Assembly (NCBI GenBank): GCA_964630095.1 | Contig: CAZVSZ010000001.1 | Location: 2,982-26,981, forward strand | Reading direction: 5' to 3' | Source: an uncultured Thermoplasmata archaeon | GTDB lineage: Archaea; Thermoplasmatota; Thermoplasmata; Thermoplasmatales; Aciduliprofundaceae | DNA: 24,000 nt | Part shown: one piece after another, positions 1-23,859 of the stretch | How the letters are laid out: the number at the start of each line of letters is the position of its first letter | Numbering within the stretch: position 1 is the stretch's first letter | Program-made: the position numbers and the translations under genes | Notes under the pieces: model-generated | Databases searched by the model: none | What the model was told of the DNA's origin: nothing | The model's input: the letters and a program-made list of their open reading frames with translations, nothing else

Positions 1-590
1 AAATATTCTCTCAAGGTATCCAGATTTACAAAATCATGTATTGCAGTGATACCATTTTTCAGAGCGTATTCTTGAGCATAATTGAAATTAGGTTTTCCAA
101 TCTTAAGTTTTTTCATTATTTTCTCAATTTCTTTTTCTCTTATTATTCCCTCTTCAATATCAATATTAAATTCTTTCATTGCCTTTGAATTAAGAACCCC
201 TAAATGCCCATCTTCCCTTATTAGAAATACTATCTTATTTTTGCAATAAGAATCAAGTTCCTCCCTGTTTAAATATTCTTTTTTCTCCCATATACTCTCA
301 TCCCAGCCACGACCGATTATTACTCTCCTTTTCCTGCATTCCTTTCCAATTATTTTCAAAACTTCATCTCTTTTCTTATTTGTCAGATCCAGAAAATCAT
401 GCATTAGAGCAATATTTATAAGATGTGTGTGTGAGTCGCAGAATCCCGGAAGAATTGTGGCTCCTTTCAAATCAATTCTTCTCGTAGATTCCGGTAAATT
501 CCCCTTCCCTATTTTCTCAATTTTGTTTCCTTTTATCAGAAGATATTCTGCATCTTCCCTTCCAAATATTTTTGCATTGTAGAGGAGCAT
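1..590 (-). CDS. amidohydrolase-superfamily metal-dependent hydrolase (N-terminal part; C-terminus lies beyond the window edge)
   Basis: Missing from the ORF track because it runs off the edge. A reverse-strand ATG at 590-588 opens a frame I read without stops to position 1: MLLYNAKIFGREDAEYLLIKGNKIEKIGKGNLPESTRRIDLKGATILPGFCDSHTHL... The ILPGFxDSHxH motif after a short beta-rich N-terminus is the classic amidohydrolase metal-binding signature (YtcJ/amidohydrolase-3-like). Confidence 0.7.
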   Translation of the reverse strand, partial: MLLYNAKIFGREDAEYLLIKGNKIEKIGKGNLPESTRRIDLKGATILPGFCDSHTHLINIALMHDFLDLTNKKRDEVLKIIGKECRKRRVIIGRGWDESIWEKKEYLNREELDSYCKNKIVFLIREDGHLGVLNSKAMKEFNIDIEEGIIREKEIEKIMKKLKIGKPNFNYAQEYALKNGITAIHDFVNLDTLREY

Positions 591-1681: not shown

Positions 1682-4957
<3,276 letters not shown>

Positions 4958-8323: not shown

Positions 8324-8665
8324 TTACAATGAGAGAACCTCATCTGGATTTTCTATCCACATTCTCACATATGAATTTATTCCAGCCAGCTCTCTTTCCA
8401 CAGGTATGTCCTGCATTGCAGAAATAAAAATAAGGGAAATTAAATGAGTTCTTGCTGGAGCTTTCCATTCCTTGCCGCCTGCACTCTTTATGCCCTCTGC
8501 AAGTGCCATTAGCTGATTCTCCACATATTCACTAATCCACCCTACCTTTGTGTAATACCTGAGAAGATTTTTAAGGCTCTCGTGATTTACTTGCTGAAGT
8601 AGGTAACTGAGCCACTTCACCGCAAGCACCTGTGTTTTCACATCATCATTTATTCTCTCCAACAT
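8324..8665 (-). CDS. flaE: archaellum accessory protein, stand-alone FlaD/FlaE (ArlD/E) domain
   Basis: 113 aa. It aligns with the C-terminal half of the 330-aa ORF at 9693-10676: WLSYLLQQVNHESLKNLLRYYTKVGWISEYVENQLMALAEG versus WIEFLFERVKRDKITLLLDYYVDIGWISREVKSEIMAYARG, and HLISLIFISAM versus HLKSLLFIMKI. This is the Arch_fla_DE-type domain. It starts 9 nt downstream of an archaellin gene. Confidence 0.7.
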   Translation of the reverse strand: MLERINDDVKTQVLAVKWLSYLLQQVNHESLKNLLRYYTKVGWISEYVENQLMALAEGIKSAGGKEWKAPARTHLISLIFISAMQDIPVERELAGINSYVRMWIENPDEVLSL

Positions 8666-8674
8666 TTTTCTCCC

Positions 8675-9541
8675 TCACAGAGAAATATACTTGGTTGTGT
8701 ATGTTGAGGGTGTGGTGAATTCTACAAGAGTGGGTGTCCCATGCTTGGGTATGAATTTTATCATTGTATCTGTTTGAGGCTCTAAATTGAGGCCTACCGC
8801 ACTGGCATTGATGTATATTCTCAAAACATCCCCTGCGGTTATCACACCATCTCTTTCCCAATTCATCGGTGGCATATCTCTTGCAATTACAGCCCCGAAA
8901 TGTTCTCCATCAAGCACCGAATAATTTGTTGCTGAGGCATTGTAAGTGAGTGTGGCGTCTGTGAATCCATCACTTATTTCAATAAGAACGCTATCTATGG
9001 CAATTGGTGGACTTCCAGCCATTAATCCAACCTTTATGTCAAGATAAGATATTGTTCTTTTGTATCCTGAGCCGTAAATTGCAGTAATCGTGGTTCCTCC
9101 TGATGGAGCTGTGGAATATTCAAGATGCACCGTTCCATTATCATATCCAACCCAACCGGATACACCAGAACCTGAAATTAACACAAGATTCCCTGTGCCA
9201 TCATCAACAAGCACATTAGTTCCATCAGTGATTCTTAATGAGTGAGGATTTATGGGGTGGTGAGACATCACATGTTCAAATACCCTTGTGCTACCGTCTC
9301 CTGTTCCTATTGTTTCTGTGTATTTCACATCTTCTCTAACTCCCTGAACCGTTATAACTTTGAATCCTGTGGAGACATCCTGCTGAGCAATCTCTCCTGT
9401 TTTCACTGCCTGCTGCTGCAGCTGGTATGCTGTCTGTATCAGCACGGTTGCGGCAACGGCAGCCACGATAATCATGGCTATGAGGATTATCAGAGTGCCT
9501 ATACCGAATTCGCCTTTTTCCTTGAAATACATTTTTCTCAT
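8675..9541 (-). CDS. flaB: archaellin (FlaB/ArlB) with ~95-aa internal insertion
   Basis: Class III signal peptide and hydrophobic helix [45 protein letters not shown]. The C-terminal archaellin core (IKVGLMAGSPPIAIDSVLIEISDG...LNLEPQTDTMIKFIPKHGTPT) is collinear with the 204-aa paralogue. An extra segment at aa ~69-163 has no counterpart there. AGGAG lies 9 nt upstream of the ATG. Confidence 0.9.
   Translation of the reverse strand: MRKMYFKEKGEFGIGTLIILIAMIIVAAVAATVLIQTAYQLQQQAVKTGEIAQQDVSTGFKVITVQGVREDVKYTETIGTGDGSTRVFEHVMSHHPINPHSLRITDGTNVLVDDGTGNLVLISGSGVSGWVGYDNGTVHLEYSTAPSGGTTITAIYGSGYKRTISYLDIKVGLMAGSPPIAIDSVLIEISDGFTDATLTYNASATNYSVLDGEHFGAVIARDMPPMNWERDGVITAGDVLRIYINASAVGLNLEPQTDTMIKFIPKHGTPTLVEFTTPSTYTTKYISL
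9406..9523 (-). repeat. 118-nt segment 94% identical to 11230-11347 (archaellin N-terminal helix coding region)
   Basis: Manual base-by-base alignment gives 111/118 identical. The flanking coding sequence of the two genes is much more diverged. Confidence 0.85.
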
Positions 9542-9580
9542 TTTTATTTCTCCTGAGAGAGGCCCGTACCCACAGGTGAT

Positions 9581-9588
9581 AATATATA
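9581..9588 (-). promoter_or_regulatory. candidate TATA box for the 288-aa archaellin gene
   Basis: The minus strand reads ACTATATATTATC about 40-50 nt upstream of the ATG at 9541. This would give a ~15-20 nt leader containing AGGAG. Confidence 0.35.
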
Positions 9589-9590
9589 GT

Positions 9591-9610
9591 TGTTCTCATA
9601 TCTGAGAACA
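9591..9610. promoter_or_regulatory. perfect 8-4-8 palindrome TGTTCTCA-TATC-TGAGAACA abutting the candidate TATA box
   Basis: Read directly: tgttctcatatctgagaaca. The arms are exact reverse complements. It lies immediately upstream (BRE side) of the TATATATT element. Confidence 0.6.
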
Positions 9611-9675
9611 ATCAATGATACTCATTGAAATTTTAAATAAGTTTTTATGTGGGTATCCAAAAAGAAACAAATCAC

Positions 9676-9692
9676 AAAAAAATTGTAAAAAA
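9676..9692 (-). terminator. oligo-T terminator candidate after the flaC/D/E gene
   Basis: The minus strand directly after the TAA stop (9693-9695) reads TTTTTTACAATTTTTTT. Oligo-T tracts are the usual archaeal intrinsic termination signal. Confidence 0.4.
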
Positions 9693-10676
9693 TTATACCC
9701 CATGGTATTCCCATAGGGATTTCTTGAACTTTTCAATCTCCTGTTCTAGGGAATTCAGAGTATCCTTATTAATCTCAATTCCTGCTATTTTCATAATGAA
9801 TAGCAGGGATTTCAGATGGTCCTCTGCACTCAGTCTCCAGTCATCTACTTTCTTGTAAATCTTGGGTGAAGGCGGCTTTATTGTTCCCTTCGGTGTTTCA
9901 ATCTCTGCTTCAATTTCCTCTTCTGGGAAATACCTTGTTACATCCTGAACTTCACCTCTCGCATATGCCATTATCTCAGATTTCACTTCTCTGCTTATCC
10001 AGCCAATGTCCACATAGTAATCCAGTAGCAAGGTAATCTTATCTCTTTTCACTCTTTCAAACAGGAACTCAATCCACCGCATAAGCAGAACTATTGTGTA
10101 GTAATCTTTTTTAATTTGGGTAAGAATTGGTGTACCAATTTTCTCTCTTTTCTCTGGCCTTGTAGGTGGTGGTTGTGCAATGGGGAGGTGAAACTCCTCT
10201 TCCACACTCTCCTTCTCTTTTTCTCCAGATTCTATATTCATAGCATTCTCTGGGATGAGTGGTTCATCCGTGGGTAATTTGGTGGGGAACTCTGAAGATT
10301 TTTCATCCATGTTTATGAATGGATTTATTTTCTGTGAAACTACCTCGTATATATCAAGCAATCTCTTTATATTGTCCTGTGATTCTTCATTGAGTTTTCG
10401 GAGCTCTGAAATCTCATTTTCCAATGAACCTATGAGTGAATCATGTCTTTCAATCTTGGACTGTAACTCATCAATTCTCCTTGATAAATCATCTATTTTT
10501 TCTGTGAGATCGTCTATTCCTGTGCCCTTGAGAGCATCACTGAGTATGTTCTGAAAATCATTTTCGTCCACTATTGTCTCTGATACCCCCTCCTGAGGGG
10601 ACTCAGTCATCTCTGATTCTTTCGTATCTTTCTTTTTTCTCGCTTTTTTCCTTTTTTTCTTAAACAACCCTGCCAT
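9693..10676 (-). CDS. flaD: archaellum accessory protein FlaC/D/E-type fusion (Lys-rich N-terminus, coiled coil, acidic linker, FlaD/E domain)
   Basis: The track ORF begins at a GTG (10685). I prefer the ATG at 10676 (MAGLFKKKRKK), preceded by AGGAGGTGA. It has coiled-coil heptads (LTEKIDDLSRRIDELQSKIERHDSLIGSLENEISELRKLNEE) and a C-terminal Arch_fla_DE-like domain (LLMRWIEFLFERV...YYVDIGWISREVKSEIMAYARG...HLKSLLFIMKIAG). Confidence 0.75.
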   Translation of the reverse strand: MAGLFKKKRKKARKKKDTKESEMTESPQEGVSETIVDENDFQNILSDALKGTGIDDLTEKIDDLSRRIDELQSKIERHDSLIGSLENEISELRKLNEESQDNIKRLLDIYEVVSQKINPFINMDEKSSEFPTKLPTDEPLIPENAMNIESGEKEKESVEEEFHLPIAQPPPTRPEKREKIGTPILTQIKKDYYTIVLLMRWIEFLFERVKRDKITLLLDYYVDIGWISREVKSEIMAYARGEVQDVTRYFPEEEIEAEIETPKGTIKPPSPKIYKKVDDWRLSAEDHLKSLLFIMKIAGIEINKDTLNSLEQEIEKFKKSLWEYHGV

Positions 10677-10716
10677 TTTTCTCACCTCCTTTGTGTTGTC
10701 AGTGGTTCATTGTTTT

Positions 10717-10736
10717 TGCTGTACAATGCTGTACAA
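10717..10736. repeat. perfect tandem 10-bp direct repeat TGCTGTACAA x2 (two TGTACA palindromes one helical turn apart)
   Basis: Read directly: tgctgtacaatgctgtacaa. It lies between the archaellin-204 stop (10754) and the flaC/D/E ATG (10676). Confidence 0.8.
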
Positions 10737-10750
10737 AGAAAAAATAAGAG
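10735..10750 (-). terminator. oligo-T tract directly after the archaellin-204 stop codon
   Basis: The minus strand after the TAA reads CCTCTCTTATTTTTTCTTT. Partial termination after major archaellin genes is known in fla operons. The same tract could instead serve as a weak TATA element for flaC/D/E. Confidence 0.35.
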
Positions 10751-10753
10751 AGG

Positions 10754-11368
10754 TTAGTAGAGATCAACATATGTGGTTGTCAGTGTGGATGGTACCATAA
10801 ACTCCGTATAGGTTGGCACTCCATGCTTAGGTATGAGATCTAAACTCACATCTGTTTGCGGTCCAAGATTCAGTCCTGCTGTGGTGGCATTTATGAATAT
10901 CTTCACCACATCTCCAGAACTCATCACATGGTCAGTGGCCCAGTTTGAGGGAGCCATATCTCTCAAAAGGGTAGCACCAAACTCTGTTGCTCCAAGCTGG
11001 GATGCACTTGTTGCACTAGAATTGAAACTAAGTGTCACATCTGTGGTTCCATCCGTTATTTCAATGAGAACATTGTCCATATCTATTGCGGGGCTCCCAG
11101 CCACGATTCCCACTTTCATCTCTATTACCTGTATCACTGGAGTTGCGTTGGGAACATTCGTCAGGCCTCCAATATGCAATACCTTGAACCCTGTTGAGAC
11201 ATCTGCAATTGCCTCATTTCCAGTTTTCTCTGCCTGCTGCTGCAGCTGGTACGCTGTCTGTATCAGCACGGTTGCGGCAACGGCAGCCACGATAACCATG
11301 GCTATGAAGATTATCAGGGTGCCGATGCCGAACTCGCCTTTTTCCTTCTTATTCCATACCTTCTTCAT
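10754..11368 (-). CDS. flaB: archaellin (FlaB/ArlB), canonical size
   Basis: 204 aa. [46 protein letters not shown] class III signal and helix, then the archaellin beta core ([22 protein letters not shown]..., [21 protein letters not shown]). GGTGAT Shine-Dalgarno lies 5 nt before the ATG. Confidence 0.92.
11230..11347 (-). repeat. 118-nt segment 94% identical to 9406-9523
   Basis: Same manual alignment as for 9406-9523. Direct orientation, ~1.8 kb apart, flanking the flaC/D/E gene. Confidence 0.85.
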
Positions 11369-11393
11369 TTTTCATCACCTCAGGTCTCTCTTG

Positions 11394-11412
11394 GAGAGCC
11401 ATTGTGGCTCTC
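11394..11412 (-). promoter_or_regulatory. 8-bp/3-nt-loop hairpin or palindromic operator GAGAGCCA-N3-TGGCTCTC in the archaellin-204 leader
   Basis: Read directly (plus strand gagagccattgtggctctc). It lies between the TATA candidate and the SD/ATG. A near-identical element occurs at 21510-21530. Confidence 0.6.
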
Positions 11413-11468
11413 AAAATAAGTTAGATAACTGGGGTTTAAAAATATTTAGTTTCAATTCTATATAAATG

Positions 11469-11476
11469 ATTAAAAT
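11469..11476 (-). promoter_or_regulatory. candidate TATA box (TTTATATA) for the archaellin-204 gene
   Basis: The minus strand reads ATCATTTATATAGAA ~100 nt upstream of the ATG at 11368. A second A/T box (TTTTTAAA, ~11445-11452) is also possible. Either one places the hairpin within the leader. Confidence 0.35.
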
Positions 11477-11509
11477 TTTTGATTTTAGAATTTGATAATC
11501 ACATGGGAA

Positions 11510-14380
11510 TCATTTACGGTAGTAAAGATATGCAATTATTGCAACTACAGCGATAACTCCAATAACTATGTAAAGGATATTGTCCATCACAATGTTCCAA
11601 ATAGTATCCCATACACTCTTTTTAATTTCGCCAACTCTAAATTTCAAAGTTATATTTTTATTTAAATTGAATTTTGAGAAAAACATCAAGGTCAGAGAAT
11701 AAACTCCATTTCTCAGTTTATTTTTGAGCTCCATTCTTACGGTTACATTTTCTCCCGGATTTAAAATGACCACTGTCTGATTTGTGTAATTTTTACCATT
11801 GTAAGTGAATATCCAGGTGGAATTTTTTATTTGAGAAAAATGAGGTATCACAGTTATTGCATCTAAAACATTTCCAGTATTTTTAATTTGAACATCAAAG
11901 AGCACCTTCTCTTCTCCCGATATTCTTTTTACTGTCACTTGGTAATTTGGTGATGGCTTAACATCTATATTTATCGGGAGCGTGGTAAGGGTAGTATTGC
12001 CCCTAAGCACATGGAAAATTAAAGGATATGTCCCCGCCGTAATATTTAGTGGCAGGAGAAGATCAATTTCCACAGTGATATTCTCCCCTGATTTAACAAC
12101 ACCGGAAGATGGAGATATGATGGAATAATGTAGCAATGGACCAGAGACATTGAAATTATAGAAATCCATAATGTTTCCTGTATTCACAACATTTATGATA
12201 GCGGTATATTTTCCCTCACTTCCATTAAGATATGTTACTGTGGCAATGGCAGAGTGGTGAGGAGCGACCATTAGTAAAATTGAGATATTTTTTGATACAT
12301 TGCCTAACCGGGGACTAAGATGCAAATAAATAATATCCTTTGTATAAGCGGCAGTTGAATTGGGGATATATACTGTGAAATTCATATTACGCTGGGTATT
12401 TGCAGGAACTGAGACAACATCATTGTAGTTTATCAGCCAAGTTTTCGTTTCTATTATTTTTACAAGATATGTATCATTGCAATTACCTAAATTTGAAATT
12501 GTGAAATTTATAGATGCTGCTCTATTCGGGAGTGAATACACAATTGGATTATAATAAACTTGAAAATTTACAACTCTCTCCACAACTACAGTTACATTAT
12601 TCACATAATTTTTTCCAGAGGAGGAATTAACCATAAGAGTTATGTTGTAATGCCCAAAAGATAAATTCTCATACGCGTAAATTGTAATGTTGAATGTGAT
12701 TTCCTTCTGCGGTGGCAGATTTTTTATGAGAGTCTGGGGTGAAATGATAAAAAGATTCGGAGAGTAATTGAAGTGAAGGTAATATGTATCATTCCAGTTC
12801 CCATCATTAACAATACTTACACTTAAATTAGTATAATTTCCCGGACTAATTTCACATTTATTAGGGACATATACCTGAAAACTGTATTCCCTAACGAAAA
12901 CATATTCCTCTGCATAATTATTGTATTCATTGGCTTCAAACACACTATTCTGTGGATCCAGAATAAATTTAATATAATGATACCCCCCTCCCATCCTCAA
13001 GCTGAAATTGAGAATCTCCTGCGATGATAGCGATATATTTCCCTGAATAACTGTTGAGTTATCAATCATAAGGATGTAATCCACCTCCCTGCCAATATCC
13101 CAAGTGATGCCCATATTTACCGATATATTCACCGTGTTATTATTCACACTATCTATTTTTAAATATTTTACATAGAGGTCCGGAAACTTTGCAAATTTTG
13201 AGAAAATATAGGTTCCATTATCGTATTTTTCAGACCATATCACCACTAAGGAGTTGGAGTTTACTGCAATCTCCGGTTTCTCAGAACTGTTTTCGTTGAG
13301 AACTAATATTCTGTCAATTTTAACTCCAGTGCCATTATACATACCTGATTTTATTGAACCACTGGGAATGTCGTTCCATACCACAAACAACCTTCCATTT
13401 TTTTCAATAGCATTGGGAGTGATTGAGTTCACACCATCCGGAAAAGTCAGATTTCTATCATCTACAAGCGTAATTCCAGTTGTATTAAGAGAGGTGAATA
13501 TGGGTTCATAACTTTCATTTTCTCGTGAACAGGAAAATACAACATATATCCTATTATCTCCATAATCAACACTGAGCGTGCTCTTGGGAGATACAACACT
13601 AATTCTTCTTATGGGCGTAATAAAATATCCGCAACAATCAAGGCCTTTGTACATTATACTGTATCCAGGAGTGGGGGTATCATCAATCCACAGAATATGA
13701 ACATGGTTGTAATTATCAACTACAAGTTTTGGCTGGGTGGAATTGTAATGGGAGTTAGAAACCATTATTGGGGAAAAAACAGAATTGCCGTTCTGGTCAA
13801 TTTTATCGTACATAACTACCCAGTGATCATTGATAAATTCCTGCCATGCAAGATGAAGAAATCCCTGTGAATCCATACCAAAAGAGGGATTGGTACAATT
13901 ATCTCCATTATCCCGTACTGATTTCGGTGGAATTTCTATTGAAATATTTTCATTGCTGTAAAGCAAACGGGAGAAAAATATTGTCCAGTGAGTATTTAGA
14001 AATCTCTGCCATACTATAAATATTCTGGATCCACTCACTTCAATCCGTGGATTTATATCATCCCCGGAGTAGTATGTGATTCGGGAATCGTTTAGCAATT
14101 TGAAGCCCTCCTCTGTGAGCTTGGTATAATATATTTCCCAGTTACCATTTCTATAATCCTGCCACACAACATCATATGTGTTGTTTTCTCCACTTTTTAC
14201 CACGGGATTTGTGGAGTTGCCAAGCCATGTTATTCTCTTTGTGGATGACCACAAAAAGCTATCTTCAACTGCATTTTTCCCCTGAACACTATGCTCTTGC
14301 ATGTAATTTATATGGGGGTAAACTGGAAATGTTGTTATCAGTAAGGCAAGGATTATAACGCCCGCTAATACTACTCTCAT
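11510..14380 (-). CDS. large secreted, C-terminally membrane-anchored, sequon-rich surface protein (beta-propeller-like repeats, CARDB-like domain, several Ig-like repeats)
   Basis: The track ORF starts at 14479 and would overlap the upstream wHTH gene. The ATG at 14380 gives a signal-peptide-like MRVVLAGVIILALLITTFPVYP. Six W-x-D/E...W-x-I/V-aromatic repeats are present (VVWQDYRNGNWEIYYTKL, IVWQRFLNTHWTIFFSRL, LAWQEFINDHWVVMYDKI, ILWIDDTPTPGYSIMYKGL, VVWNDIPSGSIKSGMY, VIWSEKYDNGTYIFSKF). A CARDB-like end motif FEANEYNNYAEEYVFV follows. Then come ~5 repeats of the pattern ISPG..L.V.I.N.GN..DTY...F.V.I.P. The C-terminal TM is NILYIVIGVIAVVAIIAYLYYRK. I count ~42 N-x-S/T sequons by hand. Confidence 0.7.
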   Translation of the reverse strand: MRVVLAGVIILALLITTFPVYPHINYMQEHSVQGKNAVEDSFLWSSTKRITWLGNSTNPVVKSGENNTYDVVWQDYRNGNWEIYYTKLTEEGFKLLNDSRITYYSGDDINPRIEVSGSRIFIVWQRFLNTHWTIFFSRLLYSNENISIEIPPKSVRDNGDNCTNPSFGMDSQGFLHLAWQEFINDHWVVMYDKIDQNGNSVFSPIMVSNSHYNSTQPKLVVDNYNHVHILWIDDTPTPGYSIMYKGLDCCGYFITPIRRISVVSPKSTLSVDYGDNRIYVVFSCSRENESYEPIFTSLNTTGITLVDDRNLTFPDGVNSITPNAIEKNGRLFVVWNDIPSGSIKSGMYNGTGVKIDRILVLNENSSEKPEIAVNSNSLVVIWSEKYDNGTYIFSKFAKFPDLYVKYLKIDSVNNNTVNISVNMGITWDIGREVDYILMIDNSTVIQGNISLSSQEILNFSLRMGGGYHYIKFILDPQNSVFEANEYNNYAEEYVFVREYSFQVYVPNKCEISPGNYTNLSVSIVNDGNWNDTYYLHFNYSPNLFIISPQTLIKNLPPQKEITFNITIYAYENLSFGHYNITLMVNSSSGKNYVNNVTVVVERVVNFQVYYNPIVYSLPNRAASINFTISNLGNCNDTYLVKIIETKTWLINYNDVVSVPANTQRNMNFTVYIPNSTAAYTKDIIYLHLSPRLGNVSKNISILLMVAPHHSAIATVTYLNGSEGKYTAIINVVNTGNIMDFYNFNVSGPLLHYSIISPSSGVVKSGENITVEIDLLLPLNITAGTYPLIFHVLRGNTTLTTLPINIDVKPSPNYQVTVKRISGEEKVLFDVQIKNTGNVLDAITVIPHFSQIKNSTWIFTYNGKNYTNQTVVILNPGENVTVRMELKNKLRNGVYSLTLMFFSKFNLNKNITLKFRVGEIKKSVWDTIWNIVMDNILYIVIGVIAVVAIIAYLYYRK

Positions 14381-14438
14381 AATTTTTCCTGTTTTTTCAC
14401 TTCTATTTATTACTTTTTTTGTGATTATCAAAGGAGAA

Positions 14439-14756
14439 TTACAGAATTGTGGATTTCTTTTCAAGGGTATCATCCCCATTTTTCAGTATCACATGCATGG
14501 TATTTTCTTCAAAATTGAGTATTGCCCTGAAGTTTTCCATGTTAGATATGTACTTAACTCTCTTACCCTCCTTTTCCTCAGATAATAGTCCCTTTCCCAC
14601 AAGTGACTTCACGCGTCGGTAACACATAGTAACCGGTATATTGTATTCTCTGCTGAGTTCCCTTATTCCCTTCGGCTTTTCAGATGTTCCCATCAGGATT
14701 TGAAGCGTATATCTTTCCATTATTATTGACATCACTTCCTTTGCATTCATTTCCAT
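14439..14756 (-). CDS. small winged-helix (wHTH) transcriptional regulator, paralogue A
   Basis: The track start is a TTG at 14798. I prefer the ATG at 14756 (MEMNAKEV...), ~25-30 nt downstream of a TTTATAATTAAATA A/T box. The HTH core YTLQILMGTSEKPKGIRELSREYNIPVTMCYRRVKSLVGKGLL, a wing and a beta tail align with the divergent neighbour at 14919-15278. Confidence 0.7.
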   Translation of the reverse strand: MEMNAKEVMSIIMERYTLQILMGTSEKPKGIRELSREYNIPVTMCYRRVKSLVGKGLLSEEKEGKRVKYISNMENFRAILNFEENTMHVILKNGDDTLEKKSTIL

Positions 14757-14918
14757 AAGTTGGAATTGACAGCAAGGATTATTAAATTTTCGTAACAAAT
14801 TTATAATTAAATATTGATTAATTACTATCAGGGCTCAGAATCACCCAATATTACCTTGTGAGAATATATCAAATAATTATCTGTATGGAAAATGAGGACG
14901 AAAATTATTTAAGTTAAA

Positions 14919-15302: not shown

Positions 15303-16967
15303 TTAGAAAGCAAGCACCTTTCCAATGAGCCAGTTTGTTATATAGGAGGTGACTATTCCAATCCATACAAGCATTGAAAAATGCAAATAAATACTGTGTT
15401 TATGAGAACCGCTGACAATTTTTATCATCATTGAGGAGATTATTGCGTGTATAACTATTAAACTCAAAAACACAACATTTGCCGTTTGAATCGGAAATTT
15501 CGCCGCAAGTAATGGTATTTTTATATACTGCTGGAGATTCACAGGGTAGTACTTAATCATATGGGCCATCATTTTCATAAGATTCAGGGTTGTGTAAAGA
15601 GCAAATGCCATGCCCACCATAAGACCATAAAGTATGCCAGTTAGATTTGTTGCTGATTGATATCTCTTCTTCCTCAATCCCATCATTCTTATATATGCAT
15701 CACTTATTATTTTTGAAATTTTCCTTGGATTCCCACCCATCTCTATACCAGTGACGAACATATCTGTGAACTTGGAAATTAGATTGCTCCCTGTTTCGCC
15801 TGCAAAGAAATGCCATGCCTTCTTCTTATCTATTCTTGTAAGCAATCTTTTGTATAGACGATCAATATACTCTGTGAGTTTACCAAAATCATGTTTTCTC
15901 AATCTTTCCATGGCAGTCACATCACTTCCCTTTGCTTCAATATAACTGCCTACCGCCCTAATAAAAGCATCGTAGTTTCTATCACAGTTTATTAAATTAT
16001 TCTCGGCCGTATGTATTATATATCCTGGATAAAACAATGGAAGTATGGAGAGGGCAATCACTATCCCCAGATCAAGCCCAAGTGAGTAGACGACTATGAA
16101 AATAAGAAAAACGGATAAATACACAAATGGAAGACCCTTTAAAAGTTTGATTTCGTAGGGAGATCTCACATCCTTTCTGTTATGCCATATTTCATCCTCA
16201 GGTAACTTAACTTTTATGGCATAGACCATTATACCCTCCACAAAAAGAAATGCCAAGAGGGTTAGATAAAGAAATATTCTGGTATCTGTGGCTACAAACA
16301 TTGGGAGAATGGCAGCAAACACCGCAAAGAACAGCATGGAGATTATCATCGCCACAAATGTTTCCTTGTATACATCCATCTGTGATAATGAGGATTCATA
16401 TTTTATGGCATATGTCTCCACCACCACAGTTCTCTCCTTATCAAGAAATACCTCAAAATCCTCCCCTGCATCTGCACTATGTGCCAATCTATCCAGAAAA
16501 TCTGCAAGTTCAATGCTTGGAGAACGCTTGGCCACAATTCTAACTGCATCTGGTAAACTCATATTCCAGTATTCCATTAAATTGTATATCTTTTCAATTT
16601 CTTCACTCAATGCACCGTATTCCTTCACCTCAGACAGTATTCTAAATATTTCCTTTCTGGGAAGATGTGTGGATGCCAAGACAGCCATTCTCGTAATAAA
16701 AAGATGCATATATTTTTCAATCTCTATTTTTCTTCTTTCACCCCTCACCAATGGGAAAAGTAGTAAGAATAATATTCCAAATAGAGGTATCATATAAAGA
16801 ACAATATTCCACGGGAACTCTGACATGGATGGAAATACCGAGATGAGATAGTATGTGAGAATAATACTGAGAGTTATAACAGGTATCACATAGAAAAGGA
16901 TATACTTTCTCCAAGGAATATCAAACGAATGGTAAAGTCTCACTATTTTTTCTCTCATTGTAGCCAT
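15303..16967 (-). CDS. flaJ: archaellum membrane platform protein FlaJ (ArlJ), T2SS-F-like
   Basis: 554-aa polytopic membrane protein with two cytoplasmic helical domains separated by TM blocks. It starts 6 nt downstream of flaI, as in canonical fla operons. Confidence 0.88.
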   Translation of the reverse strand: MATMREKIVRLYHSFDIPWRKYILFYVIPVITLSIILTYYLISVFPSMSEFPWNIVLYMIPLFGILFLLLFPLVRGERRKIEIEKYMHLFITRMAVLASTHLPRKEIFRILSEVKEYGALSEEIEKIYNLMEYWNMSLPDAVRIVAKRSPSIELADFLDRLAHSADAGEDFEVFLDKERTVVVETYAIKYESSLSQMDVYKETFVAMIISMLFFAVFAAILPMFVATDTRIFLYLTLLAFLFVEGIMVYAIKVKLPEDEIWHNRKDVRSPYEIKLLKGLPFVYLSVFLIFIVVYSLGLDLGIVIALSILPLFYPGYIIHTAENNLINCDRNYDAFIRAVGSYIEAKGSDVTAMERLRKHDFGKLTEYIDRLYKRLLTRIDKKKAWHFFAGETGSNLISKFTDMFVTGIEMGGNPRKISKIISDAYIRMMGLRKKRYQSATNLTGILYGLMVGMAFALYTTLNLMKMMAHMIKYYPVNLQQYIKIPLLAAKFPIQTANVVFLSLIVIHAIISSMMIKIVSGSHKHSIYLHFSMLVWIGIVTSYITNWLIGKVLAF

Positions 16968-16973
16968 GGGGCA

Positions 16974-18611
16974 TCACACCGTAAATGGCAATTTCTCCAC
17001 TCCAAATTTCTGAAAATCCTGTATGATTTTAACCACATCCCTATATCGGAAGATATTGTGCTCTATCATTTTCCTTATAATCTTCGCCCTGAGAAACAGG
17101 TCATTGTACACTTTTCTTGGATCCGCATATCCTAAAAGTGGTGCTATTTTTTCCTCAAGAATGTAGGAGTTGTTGAGACCTCTGAAAATATGCTCATCTC
17201 TGAGGGGATCCCACACAAATACCGCCTTTGTCATAACACCACCGAGTTCCTCTGAATATCCTATTATTTCCTCAACAGAAAGAACCCTTCTCAAGCTCTT
17301 TCCCTTGAGATACACTGCTTGCTGAAATACGCCAATATTCAAATTATCCATGAAGGTAACGGGCACATTTATTGGAGGTGAACTCAATCTCTGAATCATC
17401 CTTTTTATAGAGGATGCATGGAATGTGGACATAACAGGGTGACCTGTCTGCATTGCCTGAAATGCCACATTCCCCTCTGCACCTCTTATCTCGCCAACAA
17501 TTATATAATTTGGTCTTGACCTCAACGCTGCCTTTAAAAGATCAAACATTTCAACTCTTGATTCTTTGGGACCTGATTCACGGGTAAGCAACCTCTGCCA
17601 TATCTCGTGGGGGACATGTACCTCGGGCGTGTCTTCTGCTGTGAAGACCTTGTAATTGTATCTTATGAAGGGAATTATTGAATTTAATGTTGTGGTTTTT
17701 CCACTTGCAGTTTCTCCAGCCACAAATATGCTCTTCCCATACTCTATGGTCATCCATAAGTATGCGGCAATTTCGGGCGAGAAAGTACCCCACTTCACCA
17801 GCTGTGTTACGCTGAGAGGCTCTGCAGCAAATTTTCTTATTGTAAATGACCCTCCTCTGATACTCACATCATCCGCATATATGATATTTATTCTTGAACC
17901 ATCGGGAAGTGCGCCATCCACAATAGGTCTTCCAGTGCTAACCGGTCTTCCCATTCTTTCGCTCATACCTCTGAGATACGAATCCAGTTCATCATAACTT
18001 CTGAACTGAACATTGGTTTCCAGCGTCTCAAATACTTTGTGAATTAAATGAATAGGATCAATACCTATGGTGTGGATATCCTCTATGTAAGGATCTCTGA
18101 GAAGAGGTTCCAGAGGACCACTCTCAATAATGTCTCTCTTTAAATAATACTCAATCTTATCATATTCCTCCGTTGTAACGGGCACTTTTACTTCCTTAAA
18201 AAGGGAAAAGAACGATTTTTCCTCTTCAAATGGCACAAATTCATCAGTAATCACCGTTGATTTTTTAAGCAATCTCTCTATCTGTCTCTCAAACTCTTCC
18301 TTTGTCTTGTGAGGGGGTTCATATCCTGCCTTTATGAAAATCAATTCCCTTATTTTTAGGTATTTCTTCAGTTCTTCATCGTTAAGCTGGGGCTGTATCA
18401 CAACATACTTTCTCTGAGCCATTCTGCCATATATATGGATGAATATGGGGTCACCAACAGGATATATAAGATTAACCCATTCCAGATCCCTCATATCTCT
18501 TGAAAGTTGTTCGTAAAACTCAGGCTTTTCCTTTAATTCTTTCTTGACTTTTTCAATATAGACCCCAAGATGAGGATTTCTTTTTATTGCAATATCCATT
18601 TTCATTGCCAT
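16974..18611 (-). CDS. flaI: archaellum assembly/motor ATPase FlaI (ArlI)
   Basis: 545 aa. Walker A GETASGKTT, Walker B/Asp box NYIIVGEIRGAE and His box GHPVMSTFHA are typical of the secretion ATPase superfamily (T2SS-E/VirB11-like). The N-terminal domain and gene context are FlaI-specific. Confidence 0.95.
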   Translation of the reverse strand: MAMKMDIAIKRNPHLGVYIEKVKKELKEKPEFYEQLSRDMRDLEWVNLIYPVGDPIFIHIYGRMAQRKYVVIQPQLNDEELKKYLKIRELIFIKAGYEPPHKTKEEFERQIERLLKKSTVITDEFVPFEEEKSFFSLFKEVKVPVTTEEYDKIEYYLKRDIIESGPLEPLLRDPYIEDIHTIGIDPIHLIHKVFETLETNVQFRSYDELDSYLRGMSERMGRPVSTGRPIVDGALPDGSRINIIYADDVSIRGGSFTIRKFAAEPLSVTQLVKWGTFSPEIAAYLWMTIEYGKSIFVAGETASGKTTTLNSIIPFIRYNYKVFTAEDTPEVHVPHEIWQRLLTRESGPKESRVEMFDLLKAALRSRPNYIIVGEIRGAEGNVAFQAMQTGHPVMSTFHASSIKRMIQRLSSPPINVPVTFMDNLNIGVFQQAVYLKGKSLRRVLSVEEIIGYSEELGGVMTKAVFVWDPLRDEHIFRGLNNSYILEEKIAPLLGYADPRKVYNDLFLRAKIIRKMIEHNIFRYRDVVKIIQDFQKFGVEKLPFTV

Positions 18612-19314: not shown

Positions 19315-19746
19315 TTAACTCACCGTGAAATTGAAATTCTGCGATAAACCATCTTCAAGAACAACCTTCACCACATGAGTTCCAGAGGCAAGGTCAATGT
19401 CCACAACGAGAGTTATTGTGACTCCCGGATTCCATGTAATATTCGTCCCGTCTACAACGGTGAAATTTGCCGATATACCATCAACGAGAACTGTTATGTG
19501 CTGCACGCTCAATGCTATTTTACCCGTGTTTTTCAGATAGAGAATTACAGGATTATTAGTCATCCTCTCTGGGTCATTTATTATTTTGAAATCCTCCGAT
19601 AATTGCTTGGATATTATATCTCCCCTATCCTCAATTCCATTGGATATGTTCATTATTGCCACCACAGCCACTCCAACAAAGCTCGCCGCAATTATTATGG
19701 ACGCAATAAAGAATATTATATGGGTTGCACTTGTGCTCATACCCAT
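19315..19746 (-). CDS. flaG: archaellum stator-complex protein FlaG (ArlG)
   Basis: 143 aa. N-terminal archaellin-like TM helix MGMSTSATHIIFFIASIIIAASFVGVAVV, then a beta-sandwich-like domain (PVILYLKNTGKIALSVQHITVLVDG). Position between flaF and flaH, 1-nt gap to flaH. Confidence 0.7.
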   Translation of the reverse strand: MGMSTSATHIIFFIASIIIAASFVGVAVVAIMNISNGIEDRGDIISKQLSEDFKIINDPERMTNNPVILYLKNTGKIALSVQHITVLVDGISANFTVVDGTNITWNPGVTITLVVDIDLASGTHVVKVVLEDGLSQNFNFTVS

Positions 19747-19757
19747 TTCACATCACC

Positions 19758-20822
19758 TCACAAAAATCCATAAACTTCATTTCCATAATCATCCACAATC
19801 TTAATTCTATAACCGAAATTCATGGCCCATACCTCGTTCCCCGAAACATATATTTTCCCATAGATATCCAAGTTTTTCACCTTTTCCTCAAGCGTTATTT
19901 CCCTCACATAACTTCCATCTCTGAATATCAGAATCTGATTTCCGTTGTTAAGTATTATCATATAATCTTTACCATTCTCAAAATCCGATGAAATTTTTGT
20001 GGCATTGGTGATGTATGGGGATGTGATTTGATACAGATAAGCTCCCGTGTAATTGAATACCTTTACTGCGTTGCCATCCAAGACATACACATTCCTTCCC
20101 ACGGCTACATCCTTTCCATTATTCATGGATTGCGATGCAACAATATTCCCGGAAAATGTGTATATTACAAATGCACTTTTATTCACAGCATATACATAAT
20201 TGTAATTTGCATCCATGGCAATGAAATCATTATTTCCTACAATACTTCCAATTTTAGTTCCATTAAGTGTGTACTCAATTATACCCGTAGCATTTAGAAC
20301 AAATACTCTAGAGGAAACACTGCAATCAACTCCATCATTTATGTTAGAATACCAAGAAAGCGGGCCCTCATAGGCGTAAGAGTAAATCCCATCTGAATTG
20401 AGGATATATATCTTATCCTGTTCAGCGGTGGCAATCGCATCCATTCCCACTTTAAACTGTATACCATTATTCCCACCAATTTCGTAAGTTGTGTTTATAA
20501 AAAATTTTTTGAATTCACCTGGATACCAGTAATCCCCCGAGGTATTGAACCCTCGCATTGTTCCATTAACCATTATACTTACCTTGCTCAAATCTATGGT
20601 ATTTGGCCCCTCATTTTCAGCATAAATTTCAATTCTTGTTGTGTTGTAAACTATCCTTGTGATTGATATGCTATTTTTCTGATGATTCATTATATTTATT
20701 CTGTTTCTGAAACCATTCTGAGATTCATCATAACTGTAAATAACGCTATTGAGCAGAATACCCATCATGAATACGGATGCTGTGAATAACACACCATATG
20801 CTGCAATAGTGCTCAATCCCAT
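19758..20822 (-). CDS. flaF: FlaF (ArlF)-like protein fused to a ~230-aa C-terminal six-repeat beta-propeller-like domain
   Basis: The N-terminal ~125 aa are FlaF-like (TM helix MGLSTIAAYGVLFTASVFMMGILL; IEIYAENEGPNTIDLSKVSIMVNG). The remainder consists of six ~38-aa repeats with an NHL/YVTN-like pattern (KIYILNSDGIYSYAYEG, RVFVLNATGIIEYTLNG, YVYAVNKSAFVIYTFSG, NVYVLDGNAVKVFNYTG, YMIILNNGNQILIFRDG, KIYVSGNEVWAMNFGY). It starts 1 nt after the archaellin-216 stop. Confidence 0.65.
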   Translation of the reverse strand: MGLSTIAAYGVLFTASVFMMGILLNSVIYSYDESQNGFRNRINIMNHQKNSISITRIVYNTTRIEIYAENEGPNTIDLSKVSIMVNGTMRGFNTSGDYWYPGEFKKFFINTTYEIGGNNGIQFKVGMDAIATAEQDKIYILNSDGIYSYAYEGPLSWYSNINDGVDCSVSSRVFVLNATGIIEYTLNGTKIGSIVGNNDFIAMDANYNYVYAVNKSAFVIYTFSGNIVASQSMNNGKDVAVGRNVYVLDGNAVKVFNYTGAYLYQITSPYITNATKISSDFENGKDYMIILNNGNQILIFRDGSYVREITLEEKVKNLDIYGKIYVSGNEVWAMNFGYRIKIVDDYGNEVYGFL

Positions 20823-20823
20823 T

Positions 20824-21474
20824 TTAACTCATCTCCACATACCTCGTTGTGTAGGGAGATGGAGTCATAAGATTCTCAAGGGTAGGTACACCATGCTTTG
20901 GAATAATTTTCAGCAACAAATAACTCTGGGGAACGAGATTCAATCCGCATGCAGTGGCATTGAAAAAGAACTCCACAATATCCCCCTGCGTGATTGTTTT
21001 CTCATTCCATGTGAGCGGGCTCATGTCCCTGATTATCTTGGCTCCAAACTGTCCATTTCCGAGATGGGGATGACTCACACTTGGATCATATGTGGCTGTA
21101 GAATTAAAAACCAGATTCGTGGATATATTGCCATCATTCACTTCAATAATAATATCATTCACATTTATTGCCGGACTGCCTGCTATTGGCGAGACCTCCA
21201 CTGTTATCCAGTCAATTTTATTTCTATACGGTTCTCTAATTCCCCATGTGGTGTTGTATCTATAGCCACCAAGGGAAATTATCTTTAATCCCATAGACAC
21301 ATCTTGGATAGCTGAATTGCTTGTGCTCTCGGCCTGCTGCTGTAGACGATAGGATAACTGAATCAACACTTCGGCAGTTACTGCTGCCACAACAATCATT
21401 GCAATGAAAATTATCAGCGAACCTATGCCGAATTCTCCCTTATCTTTTTTTATTGTATTCATCCTATTCATCAC
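20824..21474 (-). CDS. flaB: archaellin (FlaB/ArlB), first gene of the flaB-F-G-H-I-J operon
   Basis: KDKG/EFGIGSLIIFIAMIVVAAVTAEVLIQLSYRLQQQA and the archaellin core ([43 protein letters not shown]). The track start is a GTG at 21474. The ATG at 21471 or at 21462 (GGTGAT 7 nt upstream) is the more likely true start. Confidence 0.9.
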   Translation of the reverse strand: MMNRMNTIKKDKGEFGIGSLIIFIAMIVVAAVTAEVLIQLSYRLQQQAESTSNSAIQDVSMGLKIISLGGYRYNTTWGIREPYRNKIDWITVEVSPIAGSPAINVNDIIIEVNDGNISTNLVFNSTATYDPSVSHPHLGNGQFGAKIIRDMSPLTWNEKTITQGDIVEFFFNATACGLNLVPQSYLLLKIIPKHGVPTLENLMTPSPYTTRYVEMS

Positions 21475-21872: not shown

Positions 21873-22241
21873 TCATCTGTGATAATGTCTCTTGAGAAAT
21901 TTGGGGAAAGATATAAATCTCGGTTTATAATGCACCCTCTTTATTGCACCTAACCCTGCTGCTTGGATATTTTCCCTCTCCGGAACTATGCTCTCACCAG
22001 AGAGCATATCAATGCTCTTCTTTCTCTTCCCATCTATTTTTCCCTTCTTGTATGCCTTTTTTATTTCTTCAACAATTTTTAATCTCTTTGCCTCTTCAAT
22101 TATCTTTTCCATCTCCTTTTTTACCCATCCAACAGATTCATAGTGTTTGTAGTAACCCACCTCAAATCCCAGTTTATATGCTCTTTCCACAAGCGTTTTT
22201 CTTTCTACCTTCTGTGGTTTTTTTCTGAACATATTTTTCAC
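21873..22241 (-). CDS. hypothetical small, very basic Lys/Arg-rich protein, no TM segment
   Basis: 122-aa ORF starting 1 nt after the giant archaellin stop, so probably co-transcribed. Helical, charged (KKEMEKIIEEAKRLKIVEEIKKAYKKGKIDGKRKK). I recognise no family. Confidence 0.5.
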   Translation of the reverse strand: MKNMFRKKPQKVERKTLVERAYKLGFEVGYYKHYESVGWVKKEMEKIIEEAKRLKIVEEIKKAYKKGKIDGKRKKSIDMLSGESIVPERENIQAAGLGAIKRVHYKPRFISFPKFLKRHYHR

Positions 22242-22242
22242 C

Positions 22243-23859
22243 TCAGTATATCTCTACATACCTATTTAACATTATTGACGGTATATTTATGATTTTGTAT
22301 ATGGGTACCCCACTCCTCGGTAAGATTTTCATTACCAACTTTGTTTGAGGTGTCAATGTTAATCCAATTGCCCTCGCATTTATATACATTTTTATAATGG
22401 TACCCTCGTCAAGAATATAACTTTCCATGAATTCCCCCGTAGGGTCATTTATAACCTCCACACCGTAATGGGTTGAATCTGCCGCTTTTATCCCAAAACC
22501 ACTGGAATTAAGTTTCAGAGATGCATCTATCTTTCCATCCGTGAGCTCCACAATTACCGTATTGAAATCTATGGGCTGAGAGCCAGGACCCAGTGAGAGT
22601 TTAATCTGTAGAATCTGTATGGAAGACTGGGGAACAACTGGCTCACCGTACAAACTTGCATTGTTCACTGGGATCACTGCATAGTAATACATCTGATATG
22701 GCATGTAATGATAATCATCAAAACTCGTATTTGTGGTGAACCCGTACGGTTTTCTGTTGAACATTTCAGGAGTGGCAAGATTTATATAATTCAAACTCCT
22801 GTAAATATAATATCCCTTAATCCCGCTTTCATTATCAACCACTTTCTTCCATTCAAGATGAAGAGAATACTGCTCCGTTATGCCTGTAAGGCCCACAACA
22901 CTGGAGGGAGGTGTTGTATCCACAGTTTCAACACTTATATGGTCCGAAGAAGAGGAATAAATAGCAGAATTGCCGGCCCTGTCATATCCAACCACTGCAT
23001 AGTACCATATTCCCGGTTTTGAAGGGTAATCTATATAGTTTCTCACATTGCCATTCACAGTAGCTATCAGTGTTGAAGAGTTTATATTAGAGGATGTTAT
23101 GGTCTCATTTGAACGGTAAATTTTTTGATATGCGATACCACTTCCAGAATCATCTGCTGTCCAGGAAATCATCACCCCATAACCTGCCGTATCTATACTA
23201 TTCACATTACCGCTTGGTGGGGTTGTATCGGGAGTACCTGTGCCCGTGGATACCGTCTGATTTACAGCCATATAAAGTGCGGGATTTCCAGCAAAATCAT
23301 ATCCTATAATTGCGTAACCGTATATCTTATTGGACTCAACAGTGTAATCAATAAATTCACGATGATCAGTGAAATTGGAGGTTTGTATGGCAATCAATTT
23401 CCCTGTGGATTTTACAAAGTTCATATCCTGCAACACATAGGATAGAGAGGTATAATCCCCCTCCACCCTGTAAATTTCCTCCTTTGCCATCCCTGTTCCA
23501 GTATCCACCGCAGAGTTCCAAACTATTTTCACCGAGAGGGGGTTGGCACTGTTCACAGTAACATTCAAAATCAGGCCATTTTGGGGAGGGTCCCTATCTA
23601 TCTGTATGGGTGCCTTTACCCCAATCACAGATGGGTCCTTTCCGTCAATATCCCTATCACCTAAGATATTGAGTATGTTTATTGAACTCGTTATCTGGCT
23701 CACTGCATCTGAAGCAACCTTTTCTCCCTGCTCTCTCAGGGTTATACCCACATATATGATTAGGGATGATGCAATTGCTGCCACGATTATAATAGCAATG
23801 AAGAGTATCAGCGTTGCTATTCCAATATCTCCTTTTTCCTTCCCATATACTTTTTTCAT
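22243..23859 (-). CDS. giant archaellin-family protein with three FN3-like modules inserted between the N-terminal helix and the C-terminal archaellin core
   Basis: Class III signal and helix MKKVYGKEKG/DIGIATLILFIAIIIVAAIASSLIIYV. The C-terminal core is collinear with the other archaellins (IKLSLGPGSQPIDFNTVIVELTDG..., LTLTPQTKLVMKILPRSGVPI). aa ~88-412 form three modules, each with a PP-containing linker (DRDPPQ, DTTPPSG, DTTPPSS), a W strand (VKIVWNSAVDTGTG, VMISWTADDSGSG, LHLEWKKVVDNESG), Y-x-(I/V)-YR, and a Y-x-V-x-x-x-D-x-AGN-type last strand. Confidence 0.8.
   Translation of the reverse strand: MKKVYGKEKGDIGIATLILFIAIIIVAAIASSLIIYVGITLREQGEKVASDAVSQITSSINILNILGDRDIDGKDPSVIGVKAPIQIDRDPPQNGLILNVTVNSANPLSVKIVWNSAVDTGTGMAKEEIYRVEGDYTSLSYVLQDMNFVKSTGKLIAIQTSNFTDHREFIDYTVESNKIYGYAIIGYDFAGNPALYMAVNQTVSTGTGTPDTTPPSGNVNSIDTAGYGVMISWTADDSGSGIAYQKIYRSNETITSSNINSSTLIATVNGNVRNYIDYPSKPGIWYYAVVGYDRAGNSAIYSSSSDHISVETVDTTPPSSVVGLTGITEQYSLHLEWKKVVDNESGIKGYYIYRSLNYINLATPEMFNRKPYGFTTNTSFDDYHYMPYQMYYYAVIPVNNASLYGEPVVPQSSIQILQIKLSLGPGSQPIDFNTVIVELTDGKIDASLKLNSSGFGIKAADSTHYGVEVINDPTGEFMESYILDEGTIIKMYINARAIGLTLTPQTKLVMKILPRSGVPIYKIINIPSIMLNRYVEIY

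Follow-up and report, generated by a model that had tools for sequence, protein, structure and literature searches.

Of all parts of the archaellum, the one that holds the motor still against the envelope is understood least, and the current model of the stator, which is built on ArlF and ArlG, rests largely on work in Sulfolobus. Both proteins are paralogues of archaellin (PMC8667602). In the published model, a filament of ArlG spans the pseudo-periplasm and is capped by ArlF, which binds the S-layer, an anchoring thought to let the motor generate rotation (PMC8667602; PMC12448462). The ArlF (FlaF) proteins of Sulfolobus acidocaldarius and Pyrococcus furiosus consist of an N-terminal membrane helix and an archaellin-like beta-sandwich (Banerjee et al. 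2015; Tsai et al. 2020; Umrekar et al. 2021, PMC8667602), and their genes adjoin arlG and precede arlH-arlI-arlJ; an ordinary ArlF is a single domain of ~130-170 aa. Thermoplasmatales without an S-layer (Oxyplasma, Thermoplasma), which belong to the same phylum as the archaeon considered here, have an operon of the type arlB-C-D-F-G-H-I-J, and a 2025 comparison of ArlF models for them revealed nothing beyond "minor differences" from other ArlF proteins and no binding motif that sets them apart (PMC12448462).

We analysed a window of 24,000 nucleotides (contig CAZVSZ010000001.1, assembly GCA_964630095.1; G+C ~38%) from an uncultured Thermoplasmata archaeon, in which the order arlB-arlF-arlG-arlH-arlI-arlJ, with F and then G as is usual in euryarchaea, is encoded entirely on the minus strand (Table 1). 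The ATG of arlF lies 1 nt past the stop of the archaellin gene arlB upstream, and 11 nt separate its own stop from the start of arlG, which is preceded by a GGTGAT ribosome-binding motif. The cluster also codes for several unusual archaellins, one of them 538 aa long. As in S. acidocaldarius and P. furiosus, the protein in the ArlF slot starts with a helix and an archaellin-like sandwich, its gene adjoins arlG ahead of arlH-arlI-arlJ, and the role of capping the ArlG filament is presumably common to all three. It does not match the small single-domain size of an ordinary ArlF: with 354 aa it is, as the original prediction had observed, more than twice the normal length, the addition being a predicted propeller of ~225 aa placed before the last hairpin of the sandwich. 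Because the ArlF proteins of Oxyplasma and Thermoplasma differ only in minor ways (PMC12448462), the propeller form is not a property of those species; we find it instead in DHVE2 and in other uncultured Thermoplasmatota.

Table 1. Features of the archaellum cluster, in window coordinates; the range for arlF takes in the stop codon (19758-19760).
Feature	Position	Strand	Basis
arlF, 354-aa ArlF/FlaF with nested NHL propeller	19758..20822	minus	uninterrupted single ORF
ArlF aa 1-46, N-terminal hydrophobic/transmembrane helix (MGLSTIAAYGVLFTAS...)	20685..20822	minus	AF2 helix 3-46; start of ArlF profiles matched
ArlF aa 47-113, first five ArlF beta-sandwich strands, the last being the W-x-P-G ... 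strand	20484..20684	minus	
ArlF aa 114-337, inserted six-bladed NHL-type beta-propeller (predicted)	19812..20483	minus	AF2, Foldseek, phmmer, hhalign
Blades ~129-164, 165-199, 200-236, 237-274, 275-315, 316-337; entry strand IQFKV 121-125			
ArlF aa 338-354 (YRIKIVDDYGNEVYGFL), putative final ArlF-sandwich beta-hairpin after the propeller	19761..19811	minus	splice tests
arlB, archaellin, 216 aa, directly upstream of arlF	20824..21474	minus	Pfam Arch_flagellin E 2.5e-22; NCBIfam flagellin
arlG, 143 aa, partner stator protein	19315..19746	minus	NCBIfam ArlG E 3e-27, 95.4 bits; Pfam Arch_flagellin
arlH, 229 aa	18624..19313	minus	NCBIfam ArlH 248 bits, exceeds cut-off
arlI, 545 aa, motor ATPase	16974..18611	minus	NCBIfam FlaI 775 bits
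arlJ, 554 aa, platform protein	15303..16967	minus	NCBIfam ArlJ 627.7 bits
Archaellin, 538 aa	22243-23859	minus	
Lys-rich ORF, 122 aa	between the 538-aa and 216-aa archaellin genes	minus	

We found that the archaellum operon is of DHVE2/Aciduliprofundum type and has the long protein as its only ArlF (FlaF) orthologue. The NCBIfam ArlF model aligns aa 1-111 with profile positions 1-121 of 137 (E 1.5e-10), and an HMM that we built from 49 short ArlF-like proteins returned by the family-profile search aligns aa 1-113 with its positions 1-117 (88.5 bits). That search, in which a profile of the long family was run against 1.84 billion representative proteins, retrieved dozens of short ArlF-like proteins (132-156 aa), whose alignments run from profile position 1 to ~110-129 and no further. 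No match of the long protein to the NCBIfam ArlG model was reported, and no second ArlF candidate was found in the archaellum cluster. The identity given to the gene in the original prediction is thus borne out by ArlF HMM matches together with gene order. The protein falls far below the NCBIfam ArlF equivalog cut-off of 110 bits (41.3 bits native, 50.4 bits in the spliced construct described below), and the ArlG of the window likewise lies under the 110-bit cut-off of its own model; since even a clear ArlG misses its threshold, both models appear to be narrow. A swap of the ArlF and ArlG labels was rejected on HMM scores and gene order, the window ArlG scoring 95.4 bits with the ArlG model and 56.9 bits with the ArlF model.

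The same protein (100% identity) is present in two assemblies of the source sample, and its homologues form 29 clusters at 90% identity (the window protein plus 28 further clusters that share 41-77% identity with it), with lengths of 352-357 aa and query coverage of 99-100%. Among the members is one that carries the annotation [quoted passage not shown] When one genome per GTDB species was scanned, 17 loci were returned, all of them in MAGs of DHVE2, Aciduliprofundum or "Thermoplasmata." A DHVE2 locus (L007) repeats the gene order of the window, and at L019 and L020 the long arlF adjoins arlG upstream of arlH-arlI-arlJ. Within the family, mean column identity is 0.74 for the helix, 0.62 for the sandwich, and 0.61 for the propeller. 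We conclude that the long ArlF is real and under selection, with the propeller conserved as much as the sandwich.

The original prediction had read the extra length as six repeats of NHL/YVTN type, and structure prediction for the full protein is in keeping with six blades. The AF2 model (29-sequence alignment; mean pLDDT 83.7, pTM 0.73) places a helix at residues 3-46, five sandwich strands (52-59, 63-70, 82-85, 88-90, and 104-110), 24 strands grouped as six fours, and two terminal strands, with pLDDT of 84-95 in most 10-residue blocks of 130-330; a fold other than a repeat propeller for aa 126-354, which would have refuted the original prediction, was thus not obtained. In a Foldseek search of the PDB, the top match to this model was the NHL domain of Brat (1q7f_B; E 1.7e-10, target TM 0.66, rmsd 3.4 Å), followed by other six- to eight-bladed propellers. 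Starting from the sequence of the single protein, phmmer also recovered Brat NHL (E 2e-4, over aa 233-341), along with the archaeal PQQ-like propeller 3hxj (E 2e-4), while the family profile, run against PDB sequences, recovered only 3hxj and did so more weakly (E 0.0044). Profiles of blades 1-5 recognised one another in hhalign in eight of the ten pairings (probability 76-98.6%); the short blade 6 is visible in the structure model only. The pattern that recurs is h-Y-V-L-[ND]-x2-G-x-h-x2-Y-x3-G, in agreement with the original prediction. For aa 121-354, autocorrelation by ungapped shifts was no higher than in shuffles because the blades vary in length (24-41 aa). On the basis of the model and these matches we predict with good confidence that the ~225 additional residues fold into a six-bladed NHL-type propeller whose blades each comprise four antiparallel strands.

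The choice among propeller families was less direct, and here the search for NHL, YVTN and SMP-30 models proposed with the original prediction gave a divided answer. Pfam assigned no domain to the protein, PF01436 (NHL) did not match it even at E ≤ 1, and the YVTN and SMP-30 (SGL) models gave no direct match, but the phmmer hit to Brat NHL and the NHL-bearing relatives of the family point to NHL. Outside ArlF, the proteins closest in sequence to the family profile (E 1e-20 to 1e-9) carry PF01436 at 28-109 bits, and SGL is seen in them just as a weaker, overlapping match. Because the Pfam NHL model misses the protein itself, the label "NHL-type" draws on the predicted fold and on transitive homology; it is a better label than YVTN/SMP-30.

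The original prediction described an ArlF-like N terminus followed by a C-terminal propeller, which it placed at 19761-20447, exactly aa 126-354 or the last 229 codons of the ORF. Both parts are present, but their order is not as described, since the profile evidence indicates that aa 338-354 return to the ArlF fold. Short ArlF sequences finish with a motif like R-[IV]-K-[IV]-V-T-x-N-G-[IV]-x-x-Y. The long protein lacks this motif behind aa 113 and has it instead at the extreme C terminus as GYRIKIVDDYGNEVYGFL. The leading G of this tail motif is the invariant G337, the last residue of the propeller part. When we spliced the last 20 aa onto aa 1-113, the score with the short-ArlF HMM rose by 13.7 ± 2.0 bits in 29/29 DHVE2 homologues. 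Control additions gained much less: a shuffled tail gave 1.0 bit, 20-mers from inside the protein gave 0.8, and the 20 contiguous aa that come next gave 2.1. Scored against the NCBIfam ArlF model, the construct with the tail reached 50.4 bits and was aligned over profile positions 1-136 of 137, whereas the truncated, contiguous, and shuffled controls scored 44.3-44.6 bits and ended at position 121. The tail is moreover the best-conserved segment of the family (mean column identity 0.80).

Strand counting in the model gives the same picture: the 24 strands of the propeller are accounted for by 121-125 plus 131-334, so that 340-343 and 349-353 remain, and this supports their assignment as the ArlF hairpin. 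The strand at 121-125 (IQFKV), in which Q122 and F123 are invariant, is probably the fourth strand of blade 6 and would provide the "velcro" closure of the ring. Pairing of the tail with the sandwich in three dimensions is proposed from sequence profiles and strand counting; pLDDT of the tail is low (62-48) in the model of the window protein and 91-93 in that of a distant homologue (P0033). Some DHVE2 members align with GxxHxIQF (aa 116-123) as the last ArlF strand, a candidate that we rejected as the main reading because the contiguous 20 aa add 2.1 rather than 13.7 bits and because the distant family lacks this motif yet keeps the tail. As judged from the profiles, then, the propeller is nested in the loop before the last ArlF hairpin and is not a C-terminal appendage. 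The two ends of a beta-propeller adjoin, and such a domain can therefore be placed within a loop and leave the fold of its host undisturbed.

The distribution of long FlaF proteins, which the original prediction had proposed to map, extends beyond the 17 DHVE2/Aciduliprofundum loci to a distant group in other Thermoplasmatota. These proteins (~377-416 aa) align end to end in the family-profile search (for example P0033, E 2.4e-22) and come from uncultured "Thermoplasmata/Thermoplasmatota/Methanobacteriota archaeon" genomes, several being annotated FlaF by JGI. At one such locus (L018) the order is arlCDE-[397 aa]-arlG-arlH-arlI-arlJ, and a second (L021) is similar. Alignment of the DHVE2 and distant-group profiles with hhalign gave a probability of 100% (E 1.4e-46 over 355 columns), and the two groups share the insertion point and align in their tails; this combination argues for a single origin of the two nested forms. 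Adding the tail in the splice test gained 6.7 ± 4.4 bits in the distant group, with a maximum of 14.8. The AF2 model of P0033 (pLDDT 91.7, pTM 0.85) shows the same strand arithmetic as that of the window protein, and its best PDB matches are the Lin41 filamin-NHL unit (E 9e-14), Brat, TRIM71 (TM 0.73), and Mei-P26. The distant group is likewise related in sequence to NHL-bearing proteins, and Pfam assigned PF01436 weakly to 7/41 of its members (best E 0.0012), LVIVD to 10/41, and DUF5128 to 5/41. Further domains are nested inside the propeller itself in some members: a Laminin_G_3/ConA-like lectin domain (E 4e-20) in the 627-aa P0172, and unassigned inserts of ~170-190 aa in P0037 and P0062. 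The nested-propeller architecture is lineage-specific, being found in DHVE2 and some other Thermoplasmatota. A propeller-bearing or nested ArlF is undescribed in the full-text literature as far as it was covered, incompletely but including the main archaellum reviews and surveys, and database entries for family members read "FlaF" or "hypothetical," with the propeller carrying no domain assignment.

Several better known proteins resemble parts of this architecture. The best structural matches, the TRIM-NHL proteins (Brat, TRIM71/Lin41, and Mei-P26), have a six-bladed NHL propeller like that predicted here, and the filamin(Ig)-NHL unit of Lin41 (PDB 6fpt) likewise pairs an Ig-like sandwich with an NHL propeller, although the two domains stand in series there and would be nested in the long ArlF. 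These are eukaryotic cytoplasmic RNA-binding proteins with just 16-20% identity to the window protein, and the likeness does not imply functional equivalence. PilY1 of bacterial type IV pili, a large protein in its own right, sits at the pilus tip and has a seven-bladed propeller that is used for binding; both it and the long ArlF thus put a propeller on a type-IV-filament machine, but the sequences are unrelated and the comparison is an analogy only. Bacterial flagella also have lineage-specific periplasmic stator scaffolds, such as the disk proteins of Campylobacter and Vibrio and the peptidoglycan-binding domain of MotB. What these might have in common with the long ArlF is the idea of an elaborated wall anchor, both the proteins and the machine being unrelated.

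What, then, might the propeller do? The published ArlF-cap/S-layer model (PMC8667602) makes an envelope-binding role reasonable. If the long ArlF caps the ArlG filament in the same way, the cap would bear a large, rigidly attached propeller, which may serve as a platform to which an envelope partner binds, be it an S-layer protein or the glycans on it. The propeller would then supplant, or add to, the small surface by which an ordinary ArlF binds, and the enlarged cap could fix the stator to the S-layer or envelope and thereby give the motor something to push against. The high pTM suggests a fixed, two-point attachment of the propeller to its host domain, and the lectin domain nested in the propeller of P0172 fits a binding role. 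Nine N-x-S/T sequons follow the helix of the window protein, and we count these N-glycosylation sequons as a point in support of an envelope-binding face. Extracellular location, binding role, and partner are all attributed to the propeller by inference, and an envelope-binding face is the most economical reading. On balance we lean, with limited assurance, toward the view that the protein is an ArlF orthologue in which the nested propeller provides the stator cap with an enlarged face for binding the envelope. The original prediction had further suggested a different cell-envelope anchor in this lineage; A. boonei reportedly has an ordinary S-layer (Reysenbach et al. 2006), and a different envelope is for this reason not evident.

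Other explanations can be weighed against this one. Unusual length, together with a Pfam search that sees no domain, could be taken as the mark of an artefact in which a frameshift or the loss of a stop joined a normal flaF to a propeller gene downstream, an outcome for which the original prediction had allowed. The ORF is continuous, the protein is identical in two assemblies of the sample, 28 further clusters and 17 loci keep the length constant, and the distant family has the same layout; moreover, the C-terminal 17 aa would complete the ArlF fold, a result that fusing two genes would not give. The probability of such an artefact is therefore negligible. A different proposal accepts the protein as it stands and has the propeller contact the machine rather than the envelope, as a collar or bushing round the filament or hook or as a ring-forming ArlF/ArlG platform. 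Propellers are generic protein-protein platforms, ArlF and ArlG are themselves archaellin paralogues, the cluster contains several unusual archaellins including the 538-aa one, and the archaella of A. boonei are reported to have unusual, conspicuous hooks (PMC10117864). We nonetheless consider contact with the machine unlikely, because co-variation of the propeller with archaellin types is not evident (L018 and L021 retain it despite different archaellin sets) and because the variant with a lectin domain suggests a glycan or envelope component as ligand, with the qualification that archaellins are glycosylated too.

It is also conceivable that the protein serves at the surface as an adhesin, or in the filament as a minor subunit, and that, by analogy with PilY1, it would turn its propeller toward external substrates. 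Such a role would draw on the analogy of a propeller on a type-IV-filament protein, on the PilY-like domains in archaeal pili discussed by Makarova et al., and on the lectin-like nested domain of some relatives. It seems to us improbable, given that the gene occupies the arlF slot right before arlG-arlH-arlI-arlJ in all loci examined with no other ArlF present, and that its N terminus is ArlF-type (MG[LF]S...) and starts straight with the hydrophobic helix, unlike the window archaellins, in which a charged leader of ~10-18 residues comes before the helix. The NHL/SGL fold includes lactonases and lyases, and sequence relatives of the family overlap the SGL, phytase-like, and arylesterase Pfam models, so an enzyme that acts on envelope or glycan substrates near the motor might also be imagined. 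The invariant residues, however, are mostly structural G/Y/D at repeated blade positions, no constellation of metal-binding or catalytic type is conserved, and the structures matched best are NHL domains that bind rather than catalyse, and we hold catalysis to be very improbable.

The preferred reading, an envelope-binding face on the stator cap, can be extended, and we do so tentatively, since the balance seems to tilt somewhat against the full claim: a whole branch of the Thermoplasmatota, DHVE2 together with several uncultured lineages, may have rebuilt its stator cap by way of a propeller nested in ArlF, with a lectin domain inside the propeller in some members, which would give a torque anchor that binds glycan or protein and is of another kind than the S-layer contact made by ArlF in Sulfolobus. 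If this is true, no "anchor module" would have been identifiable in an archaellum stator before this propeller, which could be expressed by itself as bait for the envelope receptor. The adjacency of its ends is what should make the propeller producible on its own to identify an envelope partner. Its presence or absence across the Thermoplasmatota can be correlated with envelope type, and, Aciduliprofundum being cultivable, it should give a large, recognisable density by which to locate ArlF in cryo-tomograms of these cells. The protein also illustrates cleanly how a domain can be nested in an archaellin fold. The anchor question gains a concrete handle from a conserved ArlF whose putative binding domain is large, discrete, and probably rigidly mounted, and the nested propeller probably gives this deep-sea vent group a much larger module with which to grip the envelope.

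The archaellum cluster extends downstream of arlJ through window positions 8324-14798 on the minus strand, an unusual, split arrangement that comprises a TrmB-like protein, a large 989-aa protein, two archaellins, an ArlC/DE fusion, and an ArlD/E-like protein. The gyrase B gene lies in the same window, as do genes for phosphoglucomutase, a member of the aconitase family, and Trm1, the tRNA (m2,2G) methyltransferase; all four belong to the ordinary housekeeping context of a Thermoplasmata-type genome.

Genes of the window discussed in this section
Feature	Length (aa)	Window position	Strand	Remark
DNA gyrase B gene	641	3026-4951	-	
ArlD/E-like protein	113	8324-8665	-	
Archaellin	288	8675-9541	-	
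ArlC/DE fusion	330	9693-10685	-	
Archaellin	204	10754-11368	-	
Large protein	989	11510-14479	-	Sole match Wzt_C, weak
TrmB-like HTH protein		14439-14798	-	
Lysine-rich ORF	122	21873-22241	-	Flanked by two archaellin genes
Archaellin	538	22243-23859	-	Arch_flagellin profile match in two pieces

Gene neighbors (at L018 15877-17194 and L021 1-1487) were also observed at two distant loci of uncultured Thermoplasmatota that encode a long ArlF. At L018, arlJ is followed directly by a gene for a CARDB-domain protein of >1000 aa. At L021, the gene for a DUF835/bactofilin-like protein immediately precedes the long arlF, and a second T2SSE ATPase is present after arlJ.

Among the relatives recovered by the family-profile search, three long ArlF proteins display a second level of nesting: in P0172, aa 319-461 form a Laminin_G_3 domain of the ConA-like lectin type, and the propellers of P0037 and P0062 are interrupted by unassigned inserts of ~170-190 aa. 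Enlargement by another route was observed in four ArlF/ArlG-like proteins (P0048, P0113, P0061, and P0082; 256-468 aa), in which the beta-sandwich domain is repeated in tandem in two to four copies.

In the upstream part of the cluster, the public contig calls the lysine-rich ORF as 119 aa, and searches of the Pfam and NCBIfam families returned no match to it. In the adjacent 538-aa archaellin, one part of the Arch_flagellin profile matches aa 10-75 and the other the C-terminus; the two are separated by a DUF7743/fn3-like stretch in which three segments of ~100 aa are alike as judged by eye. This archaellin is a second archaellin-fold protein with inserted domains in the cluster.
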